Below, piece after piece: positions 2,440 to 16,817 of a stretch of 40,950 nt of DNA. The stretch is from the IMG/VR virus record IMGVR_UViG_2531839619_000023. One strand, written 5' to 3'. Position 1 is the first letter of the stretch. Each line of letters begins with the position of its first letter. This DNA comes from a virus. Lineage: Duplodnaviria; Heunggongvirae; Uroviricota; Caudoviricetes. Under the pieces are notes generated by a model. The model was not told where the DNA came from. It did no database searches and saw only the letters and a list, made by a program, of their open reading frames with translations. A program made the translations under genes and the position numbers.

Positions 2440-3372
2440 ATGACTGATATTAACGATGTAATCAAGACCATTGATGAACTTATTGATGGCGGCGTACTGA
2501 CGCAGTATGCCATCGCCAGAGAGGCGGGAATTTCCGACGGCACATTATCGGCTTTCCGTAAGGGAAAATATAAAGGCGATAACGCTGCTGTGGCTGCTTC
2601 CCTGCGTTCCTGGTATGAGAACTGGAATAAACAAAGCGCACTGCCGGAACCGCCGCAGTTTGTGGAAACGCAGACAGTCCAGGAGCTGCGCGCACTGTTT
2701 CAGGCGGTTCGTCTGATGGGCTGTATTAACGTTATTGTGGGCGTACCGGGTGTGGGTAAAACGGCCACTGCCCGTAATTACTGCCAGGAGCAACCAAACA
2801 CCTGGATGATCACCCTGTCACCCGCGCACTCCAGCGTCACGGAGTGTCTGCTGGAGCTGGCCGATGCGCTGGGGATTGATTACACCCGCGCGAACAAAGG
2901 GGCATTATCCCGCGCCATCCGCCGTCGCCTGATGGGAACGCGTGGACTGGTGATTGTGGATGAGGCGGATCATCTTGGTATTGACGGTCTGGAGCAACTC
3001 CGGGCAATTCAGGACGCCACGGGGATCGGGATGGTGCTTATTGGTAACCCGCGCGGATTGTTTAAAGGTGGACGCCGCGCCTTTGATGATTTATCGCGCC
3101 TGTTCAGCCGTCTTGCCCGTACAAAACAACTTCGCAAGGCCAAAAAGGCGGATGTGCTGGCCATTGCCAGGGCGTGGGGGATCAGTGGTGAGGCCGAGCT
3201 GGCCGTCATGCAGGCTATCGCTGAAAAGCCGGGAGCGTTACGCGTTCTGACACATACGCTTAACCAGGCGTGGCTCACCGCCAGCGGTGAAGGCGCGGCG
3301 CTGACAGAAAAACATATTAATGCGGCCTTTAAAGAGGTTTATACCAACCCTGAATTACTCTCACAGGTGTGA
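2440..3372 (+). CDS. B: Transposition target-DNA activator ATPase, MuB family (AAA+)
   Basis: 310 aa with a Walker A motif (GVPGVGKT) and a Walker B-like IVDEADHL; size and position match Mu B. Confidence 0.9.
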   Translation: MTDINDVIKTIDELIDGGVLTQYAIAREAGISDGTLSAFRKGKYKGDNAAVAASLRSWYENWNKQSALPEPPQFVETQTVQELRALFQAVRLMGCINVIVGVPGVGKTATARNYCQEQPNTWMITLSPAHSSVTECLLELADALGIDYTRANKGALSRAIRRRLMGTRGLVIVDEADHLGIDGLEQLRAIQDATGIGMVLIGNPRGLFKGGRRAFDDLSRLFSRLARTKQLRKAKKADVLAIARAWGISGEAELAVMQAIAEKPGALRVLTHTLNQAWLTASGEGAALTEKHINAAFKEVYTNPELLSQV

Positions 3373-3374
3373 TT

Positions 3375-3596
3375 ATGGCGGTATTTAATATTCCTGATAT
3401 TTACGGACGCTTTTACCTGGTTAATTTCGATAACGTGAAGGTGATTTCACTGGCCGAAAATAAAGAATGTGGCGATTTTCTTTTTGAATTTAATGACCGC
3501 ACACGAATGGTGATATCTGCCGGACTTGATCGCGAAGGTGCGACAGACGTTTACAGCGGAATATGCCGTTCTGTTGGTGCGAAACAAGTCAGCTAA
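3375..3596 (+). CDS. Hypothetical early protein
   Basis: ORF overlapping the B stop (GTGTGATTATGG); the ATG at 3375 is preferred over the GTG at 3369. No recognisable motif. Confidence 0.45.
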   Translation: MAVFNIPDIYGRFYLVNFDNVKVISLAENKECGDFLFEFNDRTRMVISAGLDREGATDVYSGICRSVGAKQVS

Positions 3597-3608
3597 ATGA
3601 GGTGTTAT

Positions 3609-3863
3609 ATGAATATGCAATCCTGCGGTAACAAAATGAATTTATTCGACTCCCTGAACAGCGCGCGCCGTCTGACCGAACTTGCCGGTGCGGTACTGGA
3701 ACGCAGTAAGCGCTATCCGCAACGTTTTGCACTGAAAACCACGCCGCCGGTAGGCAACGTGCAGGGAACCGGTGAAATTGAAATCACCATACAGACCAAC
3801 GGCCTGCGCCGCCGTGTGAAGGCCACCCGCATCAGCGGCTGCACGGTTTACTGGGAGGTGTGA
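3609..3863 (+). CDS. Hypothetical early protein
   Basis: ORF in the early operon; a GAGGTG Shine-Dalgarno at 3600-3605 favours the ATG at 3609 or 3615 over the track start at 3597. Confidence 0.4.
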   Translation: MNMQSCGNKMNLFDSLNSARRLTELAGAVLERSKRYPQRFALKTTPPVGNVQGTGEIEITIQTNGLRRRVKATRISGCTVYWEV

Positions 3864-3864
3864 G

Positions 3865-4146
3865 GTGAAAAAAAATCTCATTGCATGGGCGTGGTCGAGT
3901 GGTCTTATTGAGTTTGGTTACGTCCTGCCGGAAGGTGCATTGCCGATAGTTGCCGGAAAGCCTGCCACGGTACGGCATGTGATTGAGGTTATGGCGCGTC
4001 ATGGACGTGATGAACAGGAGCAGTTACTGGTTCCGGGGATACCGGAAGCGGTGACGGAGGAAGAAGCCTTTAATGCCATGATTCGGTTCTGCCGTGAGGT
4101 CAGACGCCGGGTCAGTTATCCAAACAGAACGAGGACCAGAGGATGA
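3865..4146 (+). CDS. Hypothetical early protein (GTG start)
   Basis: 93-aa ORF tightly packed with its neighbours; GGAGGTGTGAGGTG precedes the start. Confidence 0.4.
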   Translation: MKKNLIAWAWSSGLIEFGYVLPEGALPIVAGKPATVRHVIEVMARHGRDEQEQLLVPGIPEAVTEEEAFNAMIRFCREVRRRVSYPNRTRTRG

Positions 4147-4415
4147 GTAAAGTCGTACGCATTATTTTCGAATACAAGGAGCACGTTATCCATAAAAACG
4201 CTGATGGAACAGTGCGCATGGGGGTAAGTCTGGACATACGTTCAACCGGGATAAAGCAGAACGGTGATGGACCCGCCATGATTTTTGGGGTGGTTATGCT
4301 CGCGGAAAGCAGAGACTTTGCTGAACTTGTGGCAATGAAAGCCAGTGCGCTCATGAAAGATATGAGCATGCGTTCCGGGGTTATTAAAGGTAATGAATTT
4401 AATCAGCAGGGGTAA
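4143..4415 (+). CDS. Hypothetical early protein, first of a tandem paralog pair
   Basis: N-terminus MSKVVRIIFEYKEHV closely matches the next ORF (MSKVRVIFEFKHV). Confidence 0.5.
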   Translation: MSKVVRIIFEYKEHVIHKNADGTVRMGVSLDIRSTGIKQNGDGPAMIFGVVMLAESRDFAELVAMKASALMKDMSMRSGVIKGNEFNQQG

Positions 4416-4419
4416 TTCC

Positions 4420-4713
4420 ATGAGCAAAGTACGCGTTATTTTTGAATTTAAGCATGTTTCGCATGACGAAAAACCGGCAGGCAATGACTGTGTTGAAGTG
4501 CATGAAAAGATTGGTGTGGATGTAAAAACAGAACGTGATACGAATAACAGGCCGACGTCACTCTGTGACGTTTATGCAAGTATTCTCCAGTATCACAGTC
4601 CTGAAATTATTCAGTTTCTCTCAGCGGAATTTCAGGCATCTGTACAGGCTTTTGGGGCGGATGCCATCATTAAACGCCACCGCGTGCATAAAGCATCAGG
4701 CACACTGCAATAA
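4420..4713 (+). CDS. Hypothetical early protein, second of a tandem paralog pair
   Basis: The internal ATG at 4420 gives MSKVRVIFEFKHVSHDE, paralogous to 4143..4415; the track start at 4393 is probably too far upstream. Confidence 0.5.
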   Translation: MSKVRVIFEFKHVSHDEKPAGNDCVEVHEKIGVDVKTERDTNNRPTSLCDVYASILQYHSPEIIQFLSAEFQASVQAFGADAIIKRHRVHKASGTLQ

Positions 4714-4724
4714 GGAAAAACAAA

Positions 4725-5255
4725 ATGGCTAAACGTGTTACAAAATTAAAGGCCGCAGCCGAGGCTGCACCGCAGACCCGCGAAGAAGTCAGCCGCGATA
4801 TCCGTACCCTGGGCGATATTCAGCGAGAGGCGCTGCGGCTGGAAACGGCGATGAATGATGAAGTGGCAGAAATCACCGCCCGTTATACGCCGCAGATTGA
4901 AAACCTTAAAAAAGAAATCAAAGTGCTTTTTAAGGGGATTCAGGACTGGTGCAAAACCAACCGCGATGAGCTGACGAACGGCGGCAAAACCAAAACAGCC
5001 AATCTGACCACCGGAACAGTATCATGGCGGCTGGGAAATCCATCATGCAGCGTCAGCCGTGATGTGGAAGGTGTGATTGAAATGCTGCGCCGTATGGGGC
5101 TTGAGCGATTCATCCGCACGAAAGAGGAAGTGAACAAGGAAGCGGTCCTGGCGGAGCCGGATGCAGTGAAAGGCATTGCCGGTATTAAGGTGAATAAAGG
5201 CGCTGAAAGTTTTTATGTCGAGCCTTTTGAACAGGACGCCGGACTGAATAAATAA
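4725..5255 (+). CDS. gam: Host-nuclease inhibitor Gam (Mu Gam / Ku-like DNA-end-binding protein)
   Basis: 176 aa with a coiled-coil N-terminus and the conserved TGTVSWR segment; size and position in the semi-essential early region match Mu gam. Confidence 0.8.
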   Translation: MAKRVTKLKAAAEAAPQTREEVSRDIRTLGDIQREALRLETAMNDEVAEITARYTPQIENLKKEIKVLFKGIQDWCKTNRDELTNGGKTKTANLTTGTVSWRLGNPSCSVSRDVEGVIEMLRRMGLERFIRTKEEVNKEAVLAEPDAVKGIAGIKVNKGAESFYVEPFEQDAGLNK

Positions 5256-5352
5256 CACCGCATTAAATCTTTAAATATCACATCGTTTTAAGTATGGCGC
5301 TCGCGTCAGGGGACTGCCTGCGCCTGTAAACTGAAAATAAGGAACAGGATAT

Positions 5353-5895
5353 ATGGCATATTTTTATTTCAAATTAGACCGTGTGCAGACAAATAAATAT
5401 TTCACCAAATATCAACAGACTGTTTTACCGCTACGCAACAGTATTCTTCGGGCATTACTGAAAAATACAGGCGCTGCCGGATTGCGCTTAAAGCCGTTTG
5501 CCATGGACGTAATCAGTGAGTTTTATTTTTCTGGTGCTCTGCCTGCGGGCTGGCGTAAGCGCGATGATGTGGCTTTTATCGGGGACGGACCGTGCTTTAT
5601 TGCCAGACCTGATGAGTCATGCCCTGAAGGACCGGCGATTGCCGCAATGATTGAAGCCGCTGAACGCGAGTTAAGAAAGCGTCCTGATTTCCTTGTCTGG
5701 CTCTGTGAAAAGCTGGGGGTAATGAGAATCCCCTCCATGTTTAACATGGACTCCTGGTGGACCCCGTCGCTCTCCCGTGATGCCCTGTGCGTGGTGTTTA
5801 AAGTAGGCGCTTATGGCAGGGAAATAAAAGGGGGTATTCCTGAAGAATGCCAGGAGATTAAACATTCTGAATATGTGGCGCTGACGGAGGAATAA
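5353..5895 (+). CDS. Hypothetical early protein
   Basis: 180-aa ORF on the early-operon strand; no motif recognised. Confidence 0.45.
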   Translation: MAYFYFKLDRVQTNKYFTKYQQTVLPLRNSILRALLKNTGAAGLRLKPFAMDVISEFYFSGALPAGWRKRDDVAFIGDGPCFIARPDESCPEGPAIAAMIEAAERELRKRPDFLVWLCEKLGVMRIPSMFNMDSWWTPSLSRDALCVVFKVGAYGREIKGGIPEECQEIKHSEYVALTEE

Positions 5896-5898
5896 TTC

Positions 5899-6432
5899 AT
5901 GATTGATGCAAAAGTGCTTGAAGGGGTTAAAAACTGGCTGAGTATTTACGGGCGTCTGACCTGCGGCATTCTGGCTGAAAAAATGAATATGCCGCCATCC
6001 TCGATGGTTTATTTTCTGCGTGATGCGGTCGATGCCGGGGTGCTGACGGAATGTAACGGTTTTTATGATATTCCGCGTCCCCGCCCGGTGCAGCCGGTTC
6101 GTCGCAAATGCAGCCAGGAAGGTGCGGCTGATGATGTTCAGTGGTGCAGCTTCAGAAAATCCCTGCCGTGGATTGAGGGGCATGATATTCCGTCAATGGC
6201 GTGGGAATTTGCTCAGGGCGTTCTGACCTGTGAAACCGTTTATGTGGTGGCTGAAGTTGATGAGCAGGCCATGAAAGAAGGCGTGCCCCAGTTTGTGATG
6301 GCGTATATCGACATACGCCTGGGTGTCATTATCTGCGGTTTAAGCGGCTGGAATATCACCTCGCGCGTTCTGCGTTACCTGATTGTTGACCGGACGGCCG
6401 CGCCTGCCGGGATATCTGCGGAGGTGGCGTAA
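5899..6432 (+). CDS. Hypothetical early protein
   Basis: 177-aa ORF separated from the previous stop by 3 nt; no motif recognised. Confidence 0.45.
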   Translation: MIDAKVLEGVKNWLSIYGRLTCGILAEKMNMPPSSMVYFLRDAVDAGVLTECNGFYDIPRPRPVQPVRRKCSQEGAADDVQWCSFRKSLPWIEGHDIPSMAWEFAQGVLTCETVYVVAEVDEQAMKEGVPQFVMAYIDIRLGVIICGLSGWNITSRVLRYLIVDRTAAPAGISAEVA

Positions 6433-6947
6433 TGTTCTTTAAAACATCAAACCCTTCCGCGCTGGCCGCGTGGCAAAAATATCAGCAGGACTGCCAGAAA
6501 GTTAAGGATGAGGCAAAACGCCTTGAGGCCGTGCTGAATGTTGCGTGCCGGTCGGTATTTGTATCCGGTATCAGTGGCTTTTGTTTTAAAGGGCTGCGCT
6601 TTATGGATGACAAATATCCTTTTCATCGCGACTTATGGCGAAAACCGACTGCGTCGAATGGCTGGAGCTGCACACCGCGCACATCACGTATTCCCAAAGC
6701 CCTGCGCGTTGCCTCTGACGAACTTAACAGTCTGTGGCGTGAATATTCGCCCGTCACGTATGCCAGAACCGATGCACTGTTGTTCTGGCTGGGTATTGAT
6801 TTCTCGGCAATCATGTTTGGCCCTGTGAAGTGGTTCTGCGTTGACGATGTGATTTACCTTGAGTGCGGCGTAAAACCCGCAAATCAGAAAATGACCGAAA
6901 TTCTGTCTGATGAGTTTTATGCTGCTGAAAAGCGAGTCAGGGGGTGA
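6432..6947 (+). CDS. Hypothetical early protein
   Basis: 171-aa ORF; start overlaps the upstream stop (TAATG). Confidence 0.45.
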   Translation: MFFKTSNPSALAAWQKYQQDCQKVKDEAKRLEAVLNVACRSVFVSGISGFCFKGLRFMDDKYPFHRDLWRKPTASNGWSCTPRTSRIPKALRVASDELNSLWREYSPVTYARTDALLFWLGIDFSAIMFGPVKWFCVDDVIYLECGVKPANQKMTEILSDEFYAAEKRVRG

Positions 6948-6950
6948 TGT

Positions 6951-7502
6951 ATGATGATTTTACAACCCATGGGGCGAAAAGGTCAGGCACCTGCTCATGT
7001 CCGTGCGTGGACACCTGAAGAAGATGCGCTGCTGATTGCGCTTTATCCATCCACCCCGGTTAAGGATATTGCTGTCAGGGTAAAAAGAAGTTTCTGGGGT
7101 GTACATAACCGGATTGTTTTATTACGCGGTACTTACCCGGAGTTGCTCAAATGCAAACGTCCAAGATTTAAACATGATGAAGATAAATTTATCCGAAAAA
7201 ATGCCAGAACGATGACCGGTAAGCAAATAGGAGAATATCTGGGGCGAGACCGGGATTCTGTCCACAATCGGGCGCGATATATTGGCGTAAGCATGAAAAA
7301 ATACGGAGAATTGCTGCCCTTCACCCGTATACCTGACGATGATGTTCATCTTATTCGTGAATTACGGGATGCTGAATCACCACGACGTCTTACCTTCCGG
7401 GAAATAGGCGAGAAATTTGAATTATCCGAGAGTACGGTGAATTTTATTTATCACCATCGCCGGACTGCCGAGGACGCTGTATTACGGGAGTTAACGCCAT
7501 GA
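6951..7502 (+). CDS. Putative DNA-binding protein with three tandem helix-turn-helix-like segments
   Basis: Three repeated HTH-like segments (WTPEEDALLIALYPSTPVKDIAVRV; MTGKQIGEYLGRDRDSVHNRARYIG; LTFREIGEKFELSESTVNFIYHHR). The region is more AT-rich than its surroundings. Confidence 0.45.
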   Translation: MMILQPMGRKGQAPAHVRAWTPEEDALLIALYPSTPVKDIAVRVKRSFWGVHNRIVLLRGTYPELLKCKRPRFKHDEDKFIRKNARTMTGKQIGEYLGRDRDSVHNRARYIGVSMKKYGELLPFTRIPDDDVHLIRELRDAESPRRLTFREIGEKFELSESTVNFIYHHRRTAEDAVLRELTP

Positions 7503-7684
7503 TAAAGAGACTTGTATTTTTCGCAATTTTCGTTCCGGTGTTGGGGGGTGGTTTTATATTTGCGATTACAGGAAACCTGTCCATGATGCCAGATATTTGG
7601 TTCTTTATCAGGATGTCGCTCTTCCTGTTTATTATGAATCTTCTTATCGACATATATATCCGTATTACTGGAAAACATAAATGA
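7499..7684 (+). CDS. Small hydrophobic membrane protein (two predicted transmembrane helices)
   Basis: 61 aa, FFAIFVPVLGGGFIFAITG and IWFFIRMSLFLFIMNLLIDIYI; strongly AT-rich codon usage; start overlaps the upstream stop. Confidence 0.4.
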   Translation: MIKRLVFFAIFVPVLGGGFIFAITGNLSMMPDIWFFIRMSLFLFIMNLLIDIYIRITGKHK

Positions 7685-8055
7685 GAAAAATCACGTCCTT
7701 GTCAGAGTTACAGGAGATGAATATGAGTATTGAATTAAGATCGTCTTATGAGTATCGCAAATTTCTTATCGCCGGAGGCATGAAACCGGAAGATGTGGAA
7801 AAAATCGTTTCTTTTATGGATAAGGAATGTGATAAGCGGGATGTGTCAGAAATTATTATGGATGACATGATTCTGGATTCAGTCGTGGCGTTAAGTCCGT
7901 TATGGATTGTGCATTCTCTTGCGGAAATTGCCAAAGGCACCGATAAACAGGCAGCTGTTGCTGCCCTTCAGACGCTTAATGAAATGCGTATATCTCCACG
8001 CCCGACATTAATACAGATGATTTTGTCCAGTATGGAGGATAAAGCAAATGAATAG
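7681..8055 (+). CDS. Hypothetical early protein
   Basis: 124-aa ORF in the low-GC block, overlapping its neighbours by 4 and 8 nt. Confidence 0.4.
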   Translation: MRKITSLSELQEMNMSIELRSSYEYRKFLIAGGMKPEDVEKIVSFMDKECDKRDVSEIIMDDMILDSVVALSPLWIVHSLAEIAKGTDKQAAVAALQTLNEMRISPRPTLIQMILSSMEDKANE

Positions 8056-8245
8056 TCTACCCGCTGGATGGGCGCGCCCTCTGATGGCTAAGAAGCATCA
8101 TTTTTTTAAAACTGGCGATAATATCAGTATATGTAGGCGGTGGTTATATCTGGCTCATAATCGCGAGCCGGATACATTTGAAAGCCCTGATGACTGTGCC
8201 GAATGTCGCAGAAGACTGAATAAGGAGAAAGATAATGGACAATAG
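8048..8245 (+). CDS. Hypothetical small protein
   Basis: 65-aa ORF containing a CAEC motif; start overlaps the upstream stop. Confidence 0.3.
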   Translation: MNSLPAGWARPLMAKKHHFFKTGDNISICRRWLYLAHNREPDTFESPDDCAECRRRLNKEKDNGQ

Positions 8246-8531
8246 TTCTCTGTTGTTCTGGTGCTTATATATCACATCCTTTTTCGGCGCATTTGTTATT
8301 ACCCGGTGGTTATGTCGAAAAATCATCTGCTTTTTTGATAAAAGACATCCGGTTGAACGGGCGGCTGATGCGCTCATTCAGCAGGCCATTGTGTTATATA
8401 GCGGTGAATTTTTCTGCCGGATAACAACCAGAGATGGCTGGCACATAATGATTATTCCACCAACACACCATGCCCGGTGGGATGAGGCAGAAAAGGCTTT
8501 CCATGTCCGTAAAAAGGTAAATACGGTATGA
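8235..8531 (+). CDS. Hypothetical protein with an N-terminal transmembrane segment
   Basis: 98 aa, N-terminal hydrophobic stretch LLFWCLYITSFFGAFVIT; overlaps its neighbours. Confidence 0.4.
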   Translation: MDNSSLLFWCLYITSFFGAFVITRWLCRKIICFFDKRHPVERAADALIQQAIVLYSGEFFCRITTRDGWHIMIIPPTHHARWDEAEKAFHVRKKVNTV

Positions 8532-9037
8532 GAGGAAAACTGATATCCGCCATTCATGTGGCAAAGCGCGAGCTTGCCCTGGATGATGAGACTTATACAT
8601 CCGCGCTGCTGGCAGCCACCGGCAAAACCAGCTGCCGGGATATGTCACCGGATGAGTTATCCCGCGTGCTGGATGTTTTCAAAAAACGCGGTTTTAAAGT
8701 GCGTCAGAACCCGGTTAACCGGGCCTTAAAACCGGGTACGGTGACCGCCAAAATTCGCGCCATCTGGAAGGTGATGCACCGGCAGGGCTTTATCACCGAT
8801 GGTGCGGAAACCGCCCTTAACCGCTGGGTGAAATCGCAGACGGCCGCGCAAAACGGCGGCGAAGGTGTGGCAAACTGGCAGTGGCTGGAGCAACACCCCG
8901 CCCTGGCCTCAGATGTGCTGGAGCGTCTCAAGCGATGGCACCGCCGCAAAATGCTGGCCGCGATGGGAATGCCCGAACGCACGCTGATGGGGTATGACGC
9001 CGTTTGCAGGCAGTATGAAAAATCACTTCCCCGTTAA
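8528..9037 (+). CDS. GemA-like protein (Mu gp16 family)
   Basis: 169 aa, last gene before the strong terminator, the position GemA occupies in Mu; sequence character fits the Mu gp16/GemA family. Confidence 0.65.
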   Translation: MRGKLISAIHVAKRELALDDETYTSALLAATGKTSCRDMSPDELSRVLDVFKKRGFKVRQNPVNRALKPGTVTAKIRAIWKVMHRQGFITDGAETALNRWVKSQTAAQNGGEGVANWQWLEQHPALASDVLERLKRWHRRKMLAAMGMPERTLMGYDAVCRQYEKSLPR

Positions 9038-9041
9038 CTCC

Positions 9042-9072
9042 AAATCCCGCCACAACGCGGGATTTTTATTTT
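9042..9072 (+). terminator. Rho-independent terminator ending the early operon
   Basis: Perfect 9-bp stem AAATCCCGC / GCGGGATTT with a 6-nt loop, followed by TTTTTATTTT, immediately after the GemA-like stop. Confidence 0.85.
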
Positions 9073-9106
9073 AAACTTACCGGGAACGCGAGAACCGGAG
9101 GCTGAT

Positions 9107-9532
9107 ATGGCAGAAACTCAGATGAGCATGTTTGGTGGTGACAGTGAGCAACTGCACGCCCTTATCGACCGCCTTGATGACATCCCTGATGATGTTCTCA
9201 AAAAGAACTGGCCGCGGACCCTGTCAGAACTGGTTGAAGTCACCGGCGCAGAACTTCAGCGTCAGGGGATTGAGCCGGTACTGGCCGGTAAACTGGCACG
9301 CAAGGTGGCTGCGGCTCAGGCAGCCTATATGGGCGGACGGGGTTATTACCTGCCGGTCGGGGAATCTCTCTTTGCCGAGCTGCGAAACAATGAGATATTT
9401 TCGCGCTGGGACCGGGGCGAGAAAATTGAATCCCTTCGCCGCCATTACCGGATGTCAGAAACCCAGATTTATACCGTCATACGCGAACAGCGCCGTCTGC
9501 ATCTGGCAAGAACGCAACCGCCACTTTTCTGA
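9107..9532 (+). CDS. Mor/C-family transcriptional activator (middle/late gene activator)
   Basis: 141 aa with C-terminal HTH (MSETQIYTVIREQRR) and the family's LPVGESL segment; sits between the early terminator and the lysis genes. I cannot tell whether it is the Mor or the C orthologue. Confidence 0.8.
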   Translation: MAETQMSMFGGDSEQLHALIDRLDDIPDDVLKKNWPRTLSELVEVTGAELQRQGIEPVLAGKLARKVAAAQAAYMGGRGYYLPVGESLFAELRNNEIFSRWDRGEKIESLRRHYRMSETQIYTVIREQRRLHLARTQPPLF

Positions 9533-9603
9533 TATTCCGCAAAGCCTGCCGCCTCTCCTTCACCGTTACGCTGACTCAGAGAACATCATGAGACAGCGTA
9601 ACA

Positions 9604-10104
9604 ATGCCAAAACTCCCCGCACCACTGCGTAAAAAGCTGATTGCCCTTGTTCTGGCCGGTGCCGGGACGTTCACGATTGCCACGCATTACACCGGTTACT
9701 GGGAAGGGAAAGAAAACTCCACGTATATCGATCCCACCGGTACACCCACCATCTGTTACGGCCATACCGGCCCGGATGTGAAACCGGGTATGACCCTGAC
9801 AGATGAAGAATGCCTGGAACTACTGGAAAAGGACATGAAATGGGCCTTTGCGGCCATTGATCGGCGTGTTCAGGTGCCGCTTACCCGTGGTCAGACGGTG
9901 GCGCTGGCTTCGTGGATCTTCTGGGCCGGTGAAACGAACTTTCGCAACTCCACGCTTCTGCGCCTGATCAATGCCGGGCAGATGCCCGCGTCCTGTAAGC
10001 AGTATATCCGCTGGATTTATTCAAAGGGGGTGAAACTCCCCGGCCTTGAGGCCCGCCGTTCGGCGGATGAATGGTTATGTCGCTACGACTTGCCGAAAGT
10101 CTGA
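9604..10104 (+). CDS. lys: Signal-anchor-release (SAR) endolysin, phage lysozyme (T4-lysozyme-like fold)
   Basis: N-terminal weakly hydrophobic SAR-like segment (LIALVLAGAGTFTIATHY) followed by the lysozyme catalytic region (YIDPTGTPTICYGHTG). Confidence 0.85.
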   Translation: MPKLPAPLRKKLIALVLAGAGTFTIATHYTGYWEGKENSTYIDPTGTPTICYGHTGPDVKPGMTLTDEECLELLEKDMKWAFAAIDRRVQVPLTRGQTVALASWIFWAGETNFRNSTLLRLINAGQMPASCKQYIRWIYSKGVKLPGLEARRSADEWLCRYDLPKV

Positions 10105-10177
10105 ACCGCTTCTGGCGACCGCTCATGATAGCGCTGCTGTGTGCGGTACTGCTGTTACGGGGTGTCCTGTGGCTGCG

Positions 10178-10567
10178 GTGAATAATGCCTTACCGGCCCT
10201 GATTGCCGGGGCGTGCATGGCGGCGCTGGGGATTATCGCTGTACTGGTTGCCGCTATATGGGGAATGCACCAGAAGACGCAGCGCCTTGAAGACAATAAT
10301 CAGGTGCTTGTGCGTGAGCGGGATGAGGCGCGTCAGGTGCTGGCAAATCAGCAGCACACCCTGCAACTCATTTCACAAATCAGTGAGGCGGCCACGAATG
10401 AAAAACAACAGAACATTCAGCACAGCGAGGGGCAGCAGAGCGTTGTCCGCCGGTCGCTGGCGGCAGTGCCTGCGGCCTCTGCCCCTGTTCCTGATGATGT
10501 GGCTGATCGGGTGCGCCGGGCCGTCTGTGAAATACGTGCCTGTGAAGCCGGTGCCGATCCCCGCTGA
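10178..10567 (+). CDS. Inner-membrane spanin (i-spanin, Rz-like)
   Basis: N-terminal transmembrane helix (LIAGACMAALGIIAVLVAAIWG) then a coiled-coil periplasmic domain. GTG at 10178 is preferred to the track ATG at 10046, which would overlap the endolysin. Confidence 0.6.
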   Translation: MNNALPALIAGACMAALGIIAVLVAAIWGMHQKTQRLEDNNQVLVRERDEARQVLANQQHTLQLISQISEAATNEKQQNIQHSEGQQSVVRRSLAAVPAASAPVPDDVADRVRRAVCEIRACEAGADPR

Positions 10568-10769
10568 ATGGCTGGCTGACTGCCTGGTCCCTCCTGCGCC
10601 GGAGCCGTTCACGTTTGGGGCATCGGTCACTTACAACCTGCAACTGCTGGCGGTGATCAAGAACTGCAACGTGGACAAGGCCAGTATTCGTCGTCTGGAG
10701 GCGCGGCGACAACATGAATTTACTGATATGGCCGGAACGCCTGCTGTTCCGGCAGGAAAGACGAAGTAA
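10398..10769 (+). CDS. Outer-membrane lipoprotein spanin (o-spanin, Rz1-like), overlapping the i-spanin in the +1 frame
   Basis: Lipobox LIGC after a hydrophobic stretch (PLPLFLMMWLIGCAG), proline-rich mature region; the start lies inside the i-spanin gene. Exact start uncertain. Confidence 0.55.
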   Translation: MKNNRTFSTARGSRALSAGRWRQCLRPLPLFLMMWLIGCAGPSVKYVPVKPVPIPAEWLADCLVPPAPEPFTFGASVTYNLQLLAVIKNCNVDKASIRRLEARRQHEFTDMAGTPAVPAGKTK

Positions 10770-10779
10770 GGAAAAAGGT

Positions 10780-11007
10780 ATGGATGATTCAGATCGTGCT
10801 CAGGCTGTGATGGAGCGGGGATCAGAACGCGCCCTTTGTAACCGGCTGACACGTAAGCGCCGGGCAATGGATGCTCCGGGCAGACGTGTCTGCGCGGACT
10901 GTGGCGGAGAGATCCCCGCCGCACGTCTTGTTGCTGTGCCGGATGCCATCCGTTGTGTGAACTGCCAGAACATCATGGAGGCCCGTCATGTGGGTCAGCA
11001 TCGTTAA
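10780..11007 (+). CDS. TraR/DksA-family C4 zinc-finger protein
   Basis: CADCGGEIP...CVNCQ four-cysteine motif; the ATG at 10780 is preceded by AGGAAAAAGGT. Confidence 0.7.
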   Translation: MDDSDRAQAVMERGSERALCNRLTRKRRAMDAPGRRVCADCGGEIPAARLVAVPDAIRCVNCQNIMEARHVGQHR

Positions 11008-16736: not shown

Positions 16737-16817
16737 GGTCAGTGGCGGGGGTCGAACCCGCATACATGATCCACCCGGAGGCAGGCACCGACTTTACCAG
16801 TTAAGCGTACACTGACC
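16737..16817 (-). other. tRNA-like minihelix (acceptor stem plus T-arm) with a non-canonical anticodon arm; possible tRNA remnant or structured RNA
   Basis: On the minus strand a 7-bp acceptor pairing (GTCAGTG / CACTGAC) flanks a perfect T-arm (GCGGG TTCGACC CCCGC, loop fits T-psi-C-R-A) and a GG-containing D-loop region. No canonical anticodon arm could be folded by eye. Confidence 0.3.

Follow-up and report, generated by a model that had tools for sequence, protein, structure and literature searches.

What is the AT-rich run of small genes that lies in the early operon of a Mu-like prophage, and do its genes act against the host? The question is raised by a stretch of 40,950 nucleotides (nt) of viral DNA (IMG/VR record IMGVR_UViG_2531839619_000023; hereafter the window), which corresponds to a Mu-like prophage of Shiga-toxin-producing Escherichia coli (STEC) of the Sp18 type. 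An earlier note on this DNA had described positions 6950-8531 as an accessory block of five small open reading frames (ORFs) inside the semi-essential early region, where genes for host takeover, superinfection exclusion and anti-defence might be expected. The block is probably the variable distal segment of the semi-essential early operon in Sp18-type prophages, made up of one fixed helix-turn-helix (HTH) gene and an interchangeable four-gene cassette.

Although the semi-essential early region of Mu was recognised decades ago, most of its genes still have no assigned function; in Mu and B3 it is long and poorly conserved and encodes small uncharacterised proteins (PMC8705779). Regions of this kind are well known, and the block itself, present in databases as a run of hypothetical genes since the Sakai genome, is an ordinary feature of this phage group. 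What is new is the distinction between a fixed, gp9-like Myb-repeat gene and swappable cargo, a catalogue of alternative cassettes, a membrane protein of 98 amino acids (aa) that occurs in two forms, and the wide distribution among phages of a 65-aa protein with an H-C-C-C residue set. About 4% of complete E. coli genomes, chiefly those of STEC, carry Sp18-type prophages, for which the boundaries of the slot and its alternative cassettes are now defined.

The slot between gp12 and gemA

The EH031 chromosome matches positions 6900-8600 at 100% identity, and its annotation runs in the order repressor, ner, transposase A, B, small genes, gam, three hypothetical genes, the block, gp16 (GemA), Mor, lysozyme and late genes. 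Two Shiga toxin (Stx) phage records also contain the same sequence, labelled 'inserted Mu-like phage'. Direct comparison with Mu returned homologues of Ner, A, B, Gam, gp11 (67%), gp12 (54%), GemA (44%), Mor/C and Lys. Placement of the block in the semi-essential early region was therefore sound: it lies in a rightward operon of the Mu type, downstream of A, B and gam and with all genes on the + strand, and it fills the slot between the gp12 and GemA homologues, in which Mu carries gp13 (60 aa), gp14 (100 aa) and gp15 (55 aa). Sp18 of the Sakai strain (O157:H7) has the five genes in the same order as the window, with allelic differences only (96.2% nucleotide identity over the four cargo genes), and every one of them is annotated as hypothetical. 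The coordinates are collected in Table 1.

Counts in 5,426 complete E. coli genomes, with a threshold of at least 80% for calling the cargo complete, separate the first gene of the block from the other four. The gp11-gp12 backbone was found in 233 genomes (275 places) and the HTH gene in 232 genomes (273 places); the latter varies by allele only, at 100, 90 or 72% identity beside a gp12 homologue that is 90-100% identical across the E. coli lineage. Since 273 places stand against 275, the HTH gene is a fixed gene of the lineage and not cargo. The four genes that follow were complete in only 108 genomes and partial in 221, their alignment ends recur at about 7710, 8225 and 8343, and sister prophages on contigs of 35-40 kb lack some or all of them. 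Complete in 108 genomes against 233 with the backbone, these four genes are exchangeable cargo, so that the word accessory suits them but not the HTH gene.

The same division appears in relatives of the prophage. When IMG/VR was scanned with an alignment of the HTH protein family, 77 loci were recovered, 42 of them (L011-L052) Mu-like; together, the IMG/VR and E. coli loci include 39 with gp12, the HTH gene and gemA, which represent 33 distinct HTH-to-gemA intervals of 633-1903 nt. At least five architectures recur among these 33. Architecture A, that of the window, comprises the genes for the 61-aa, 110-aa, 65-aa and 98-aa proteins in this order. In architecture B, two to three extra genes (F10, F2, F4) precede the genes for the 110-aa, 65-aa and 98-aa proteins; architecture C has only F2 and the 98-aa gene; and architecture D carries F2, F6, F7 and F8, of which F6 and F7 are genuinely homologous to gp13 and gp14 of Mu (phrog_5584 and phrog_6075). 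Architecture E consists of F4 and the 110-aa gene with an antisense DUF2513 gene. The window cassette would accordingly be one among several interchangeable cargo sets, and each of the five genes of the block has a separate phylogenetic range, as gene-by-gene mosaic exchange predicts.

In locus L008, the DUF2513 gene of architecture E (4121-4468, minus strand; phrog_585) stands immediately upstream of gemA. As the sole annotated opposite-strand cargo in the gp12-gemA slot among the examined loci, it is a candidate autonomous moron.

All five genes are under purifying selection. Against diverged alleles with estimable synonymous divergence, the ratio of nonsynonymous to synonymous substitution rates (dN/dS) lies between 0.1 and 0.5, similar to gp11, gp12 and gemA, which identifies the five ORFs as real genes; the values are 0.17-0.48 for the 61-aa gene, about 0.15 for the 110-aa gene, 0.11-0.16 for the 65-aa gene and 0.15 for the 98-aa gene. 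All the ORFs described earlier as tightly overlapping are present, the third at 7681-8055 in its longer form of 124 aa, but they do not all overlap. The start of this third gene is most likely 7723, giving 110 aa, and the ATGA-coupled start at 7681 is possible; the former is supported by an AGGAG 9 nt upstream, by the call of the Prokaryotic Genome Annotation Pipeline (PGAP) and by a PHROG profile that begins at residue 15 of the longer form. A start at 7723 leaves a gap of 38 nt after the 61-aa gene.

Table 1. Genes and signals of the gp12-gemA slot and its flanks (window coordinates), with the equivalents in Sakai Sp18.
Feature	Coordinates	Strand	Description	Sakai Sp18
Mu gp12 homologue	6432..6947	+	54% identity to Mu gp12, E 4e-68; phrog_2314; conserved left flank of the slot	
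Triple-HTH gene	6951..7502	+	183-aa basic protein; three Myb/SANT-like HTH repeats; always the first gene after gp12	ECs_4956
61-aa gene	7499..7684	+	two hydrophobic helices, basic ends; variable cargo	ECs_5772
110-aa gene	7723..8055	+	acidic all-helical protein; SfMu ORF14 homologue; variable cargo	ECs_4957
65-aa gene	8048..8245	+	basic protein; H-C-C-C set; phrog_2358; variable cargo	ECs_4958
98-aa gene	8235..8531	+	N-terminal membrane anchor and two-form C-terminal domain; phrog_17269; variable cargo	ECs_4959
GemA (Mu gp16) homologue	8528..9037	+	PF06252, 3e-30; 44% identity to Mu GemA; guanine-cytosine content 0.573; conserved right flank	
Terminator-like hairpin	9042..9065	+	stem of 9 bp with a T-run after it; in the gemA-mor interval; nearest signal of this type past the block	

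The AT-richness ascribed to the block is real. Its guanine-cytosine (GC) content is 43.2% against 53.3% for the whole window, which makes it the lowest stretch of its length; only 0.3% of equal-length segments are as low, with the minimum at 6881. A two-breakpoint likelihood segmentation over 4500-11000 placed the breakpoints at 7060 and 8560, with GC of 0.499, 0.424 and 0.574 in the successive parts and a log-likelihood gain of 42.7, against a maximum of 19.1 in a null of 200 block shuffles. Codon usage follows the same course: GC at third codon positions (GC3) ranges from 0.48 to 0.65 in the adjoining genes but only from 0.39 to 0.46 within the five ORFs. The left edge is gradual, the HTH gene having 46% GC before a steep trough of 39-40% at 7400-8000, and at the right edge GC jumps to 57% at gemA.

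Such a profile could reflect a recent horizontal insertion particular to this prophage, in keeping with GC and GC3 clearly below the flanks and with components that have relatives in unrelated phages. The related loci argue otherwise: the cargo interval has a GC of 0.40-0.48 in 33 of 33 variants, whatever genes are present; in every case this is lower than the GC of gemA (0.52-0.58) and no higher than that of gp12 (0.48-0.57). The gp13-15 segment of Mu is likewise AT-rich (0.466, with flanks of 0.525 and 0.553), as is the equivalent segment of SfMu (0.457 against 0.54). Moreover, the window cassette is 95-100% identical in more than 100 genomes, Sakai Sp18 included, and homologues of the HTH gene in P2-like phages have the GC of their surroundings (0.511 against 0.509). 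The low GC is therefore an old property shared by the slot, not a mark of recent insertion; small accessory genes typically form AT-rich pools. Since the slot is AT-rich in the 33 variants, in Mu and in SfMu, recent foreign insertion was discarded as the cause of the low GC, and as an account of the block it is very improbable.

Gene products and their relatives

The brief descriptions that had been given of four products were borne out: the triple-HTH protein by its modelled bundles, the two-helix 61-aa and membrane-bound 98-aa proteins by hydropathy, and the CxxC motif of the 65-aa protein by C50 and C53. For the HTH protein, an AlphaFold2 (AF2) model built on a 16-sequence alignment contains three 3-helix bundles (helices at residues 22-61, 75-110 and 129-169) and a C-terminal helix, with a predicted local distance difference test (pLDDT) score of 85.5, and together with tandem-HTH matches this model establishes that 'triple HTH' is correct. 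Matches of the family profile include the R2R3 DNA-binding domain of c-Myb (9e-6) and a tandem-HTH protein from archaea that binds CRISPR repeats. Fold searches with the model gave only generic tandem-HTH matches in PDB, all weak (E 0.1 or worse), and, in BFVD, numerous phage proteins with tandem HTHs that are uncharacterised, as well as DNA-binding regions of endonucleases, with E down to 4e-6.

Like the tandems of c-Myb R2R3 and Myb/SANT proteins, the repeats are three-helix units, here with a period of about 52-55 residues, although the third is nearer to the HTH of sigma-70 region 4 or of AsnC-type proteins than to Myb. The tandem-HTH modules of phage homing endonucleases also match in fold, but the window protein has no catalytic or activation domain; a single sub-threshold homing-endonuclease match in PADLOC reflects its DNA-binding repeats. 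The basic character of the protein (isoelectric point, pI, 9.9) and its predicted fold are suggestive of sequence-specific DNA binding, and it presumably binds DNA during early lytic development.

The statement that the block has no Mu counterparts fails for this protein. Its residues 66-166 (repeats 2-3) align with Mu gp9/E8 (BLASTP 5e-10, 31-34% identity), comparison of the two with hhalign gave a probability of 97.9% (E 6e-13), and both belong to phrog_323 (6e-59 for the HTH protein, 1e-28 for gp9), which is labelled 'transcriptional regulator, D5-like'. Mu gp9 is an early protein of 95 aa encoded immediately upstream of gam, whereas the window protein has an additional N-terminal Myb-like repeat and a C-terminal helix and is encoded after gp12; no gp9 homologue was found in the window at the position that gp9 occupies in Mu. 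The HTH gene is probably this lineage's version of gp9/E8, moved from before gam to after gp12.

Relatives of the HTH protein extend beyond Mu-like phages. Homologues at 34-49% identity occur in 35 IMG/VR loci that have no other gene in common with the window, and their neighbours (an integrase, a CI-like repressor, a Dam methylase, an Ash-family protein, the replication protein gpA and ParM) identify these loci as P2-like prophages; in most of them the HTH gene lies on the same strand as gpA and at most three genes upstream of it. Citrobacter phage Shae_phiSM encodes a full-length homologue. Two-repeat relatives are found in Vibrio phages, Klebsiella phages and the P1-like phage D6, and the matches in mycobacteriophages fall within, or next to, annotated genes for an HNH endonuclease or a DNA methylase. 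Scans of representative genomes with the 183-aa protein, and then with its alignment, returned no relatives; the family is confined to non-representative strains.

The 61-aa protein has hydropathy peaks at residues 1-28 and 32-58 and a pI of 10.4, and it is probably an inner-membrane hairpin with both ends in the cytoplasm, judging from its sequence. It gives a weak match to phrog_19804, and its gene is present in 10 of the 33 distinct loci. The IMG/VR copy in locus L014 (5549-5731) is frameshifted after about 17 codons in a cassette otherwise 99-100% identical, which could be a sequencing error or an inactivated copy.

The 110-aa protein (pI 4.8) belongs to phrog_1988 (5e-44, the match starting at residue 15 of the longer form). 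It has an invariant core, LSPxWI..L..IA.G.DK.AAVAAL, that resembles a HEAT-like repeat. Its AF2 model has six helices at low confidence (pLDDT 67.6), and comparison of this model with PDB folds produced no match better than E 9. When 1.84 billion representative proteins were searched exhaustively with HMMER, only 11 matches came up, all small and uncharacterised, and word-indexed searches found 13 clusters for the 110-aa protein and 7 for the 98-aa protein, with every source-named match coming from E. coli. The sole relative in a characterised phage is ORF14 of the Muvirus SfMu (37% identity, 1e-16), which qualifies the earlier view that the ORF first read as 124 aa has no recognisable Mu counterpart. 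SfMu ORF14 is not similar to Mu gp14, and an indirect relationship of the 110-aa protein to Mu gp14 by way of ORF14 was thereby ruled out.

In the 65-aa protein, H18, C29, C50 and C53 are invariant in seven of seven sequences from at least five phage groups (E. coli, Klebsiella, Pantoea, Sa179lw and PB1-like Pseudomonas phages), and the set is probably a zinc site; a search of Pfam gave no zinc-ribbon match. A temperate phage of Klebsiella has a homologue with a DNA methyltransferase gene immediately downstream of it, and others are found in Pantoea phage PA1, in the siphophages Sa179lw, Sf11 and swi2, and in PB1-like virulent Pseudomonas phages; in Sa179lw the homologue is a few genes away from a gene annotated as an anti-restriction protein. 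Every homologue is a free-standing small gene in an array of small early genes. A sequence search of PDB returned nothing for the 65-aa protein or the 98-aa family.

The 98-aa protein combines a hydrophobic helix (residues 4-24) with a basic stretch after it, and by the positive-inside rule its C-terminal domain is probably cytoplasmic. Two allele types exist, with 49-51% identity overall: the anchor (residues 1-30) is almost identical between them, and the C-terminal domain is far more divergent. Comparison of the window with locus L012 in bins of 50 nt delimits the exchange, since identity is 98-100% over 6400-8200, only 44-72% over 8300-8549, and 92-98% again in gemA, which leaves a replaced patch between roughly 8250 and 8550. 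Cargo would thus be swapped by recombination at gene boundaries and, within the 98-aa gene, at the junction between anchor and domain.

The closest parallel to the slot as a whole is the gp13-gp14-gp15 (E14, E15) segment of Mu, which has the same position, strand, operon and conserved flanks and also consists of small ORFs of unknown function that are AT-rich relative to those flanks; homologues of gp13 and gp14 even occupy this slot in some sister prophages. The window cargo differs from gp13-15 in its PHROG families, and the HTH gene at the start of the slot is not there in Mu. BLASTP of the 61-, 124- and 65-aa proteins against Mu gp13, gp14 and gp15 returned nothing, as did BLASTP of the 61- and 98-aa proteins against SfMu ORF13 and ORF15, and homology by position between the cargo and Mu gp13-15 was rejected on this null result. 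The earlier claim of no Mu counterpart therefore stands for the four cargo genes in relation to gp13-15, and homology of all five proteins to Mu early proteins with a housekeeping role was not found. SfMu shares ORF14 (homologue of the 110-aa protein) and ORF11 (homologue of a 180-aa ORF located outside the block) with the window and is without the HTH, 61-aa, 65-aa and 98-aa genes; ORF11 and ORF14 of SfMu were reported as absent from Mu and D108 (PMC4406740).

Expression and possible roles of the cargo

The layout of the block points to expression as part of a larger transcript. The HTH and 61-aa genes, and likewise the 98-aa gene and gemA, are joined by ATGA stop/start overlaps at 7499-7502 and 8528-8531, respectively, the 110/65-aa and 65/98-aa junctions overlap by 8 and 11 nt, and a plausible Shine-Dalgarno sequence precedes every one of the five genes. 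Over 5200-9700, promoter-like and terminator-like sites are at chance level (4 against 5.9 expected and 5 against 4.9 expected, respectively), and a sigma-70 consensus scan found no + strand promoter ahead of any cargo gene. With the terminator count at chance, the hairpin between gemA and mor depends on the quality of a single site. From the missing promoter and terminator and the overlapping stops and starts, we infer co-transcription from the repressor-controlled early promoter with translational coupling, and the cargo is probably expressed only with the early lytic operon. As regards the marks of a moron, an own promoter and terminator were not found, a provisional result given the crude scan, and deviant base composition was found but is common to all cassettes.

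For the reading preferred here, that of a fixed gp9-like gene and interchangeable cargo, these features would mean that the cargo is transcribed solely from the early promoter upon induction or infection, that its products act early in the lytic cycle on host targets in the envelope, DNA or protein, and that neither transposition nor particle assembly requires them. Several points count against this reading or lower its force. The promoter scan is a crude match to the sigma-70 consensus and is blind to weak or activator-dependent promoters. The loci behind the architectures were collected with the HTH gene as bait, which leaves lineages without it unsampled, and the E. coli counts offset this within E. 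coli only. Dispensability is deduced from presence and absence in prophages, not from phages known to be viable. Pfam, NCBIfam, PADLOC and PDB assigned no role to any cargo or alternative cargo gene, and the low pLDDT of the 110-aa model means that its empty fold search carries little weight. In PHROGs, cargo and alternative cargo all fall in families of unknown function. A full-text literature search by RefSeq accessions and Sakai locus tags found no paper naming these genes; a recent paper that mentions Sp18 deals with prophage loss and not with them.

It is possible, though doubtful, that some or all of the four cargo genes encode early counter-defence inhibitors of host immunity, with their variability the product of an arms race. 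This would suit variable small genes set between conserved flanks in an early operon, the two sharply delimited allele types of the 98-aa gene, the HTH alleles that diverge beside near-identical flanks, a small and acidic product such as the 110-aa protein, and an expression likely to be limited to lytic onset. The location of 65-aa homologues near a DNA methyltransferase in the Klebsiella phage and an annotated anti-restriction protein in Sa179lw fits as well, but this neighbouring-gene evidence is anecdotal. None of the five proteins or the alternative cargo matched a known anti-defence or defence family in Pfam, NCBIfam, PHROGs and PADLOC, a set that includes no dedicated anti-defence library. 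Furthermore, such mosaicism is general in phage early regions and needs no arms race, and the pairwise dN/dS values give no sign of positive selection. A wider proposal, which we hold to be unlikely, treats the slot as a hotspot of counter-defence or host manipulation: with its alternative domains the 98-aa protein would disarm different immunity or envelope targets or escape setting them off, the 65-aa protein would serve temperate and virulent phages of several genera as a general early effector, and the Myb-like protein would reprogramme host or phage DNA transactions.

Phage exclusion is usually the work of small membrane proteins (T4 Imm and Sp, P22 SieA), and two such proteins are among the four cargo products. 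The 61-aa and 98-aa proteins might accordingly give the lysogen superinfection exclusion or immunity-like protection in the manner of a moron, and the two-form domain of the 98-aa protein could fit different targets. Neither protein had a functional match to a known exclusion family in Pfam or PHROG at E up to 1, and the lack of promoter or terminator signals above chance, together with coupling to a repressed early operon, makes expression in the lysogen unlikely. A cargo silent in the lysogen argues against exclusion expressed there and is consistent with an early lytic role, so that protection of the lysogen is improbable and, given no internal promoter, the least likely of takeover, exclusion and anti-defence; exclusion acting only in the lytic cycle would still be compatible with the data.

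Three concrete experimental targets emerge: the two-form membrane protein, the H-C-C-C protein, and the Myb-like protein that is common to P2-like phages. If any of them is a host-takeover or counter-defence factor, the slot would be useful for finding more; if none is, an ordinary mosaic region has been tidily annotated.

Other features of the prophage

The prophage splits the host tyrosine-kinase gene etk. A fragment of etk lies immediately left of the window start, and the prophage itself spans 1-37700, followed by a Wzz/Etk N-terminal fragment at approximately 37706-37942 and then by etp, gfcE and gfcD. With these genes at 37706-40950, the final 3 kb of the window are host DNA.

Two further stretches of the window are nearly as AT-rich as the block (43-47% GC). 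The one at 31.4-33.3 kb (31400-33300) spans the region of tail fibre, tail-fibre assembly and a Gin-like recombinase. The other, at 34.8-37.5 kb (34800-37500), spans a gene for a 672-aa DUF6645 protein (about 33534-35552), DUF1378, DUF826 and, at the right end, com/mom-like genes; the DUF6645 gene has the look of cargo of the right end.

The RefSeq annotation of EH031 has a 'tRNA-OTHER' that corresponds to window positions 16737-16816 on the minus strand, between head-morphogenesis and virion-morphogenesis genes. ARAGORN and Rfam found no tRNA or other RNA across the whole window, and a hidden RNA gene in the block was rejected for this reason.

An extra insertion between gemA and mor is present at 3269-3926 of locus L007, and also in L018, L027 and L030. 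In L007, the only annotated locus of this kind, it consists of an antisense 140-aa gene and a 78-aa gene, neither of which has a match in PADLOC or PHROG; the window has only the hairpin there.

Upstream of gam, positions 3865-4146 encode a 93-aa early protein that matches phrog_1518, 'host nuclease inhibitor', at 4e-43 and bears the same name in PGAP; it is therefore a second putative nuclease inhibitor of the prophage, besides Gam. Between gam and gp11, at 5353-5895, lies the 180-aa ORF (phrog_2260), which has no Mu homologue and is 40% identical to SfMu ORF11 (DUF5420). Several sister prophages have at this position an allele only 23-31% identical and some loci have no match, so that it looks like a second variable position in the early operon.

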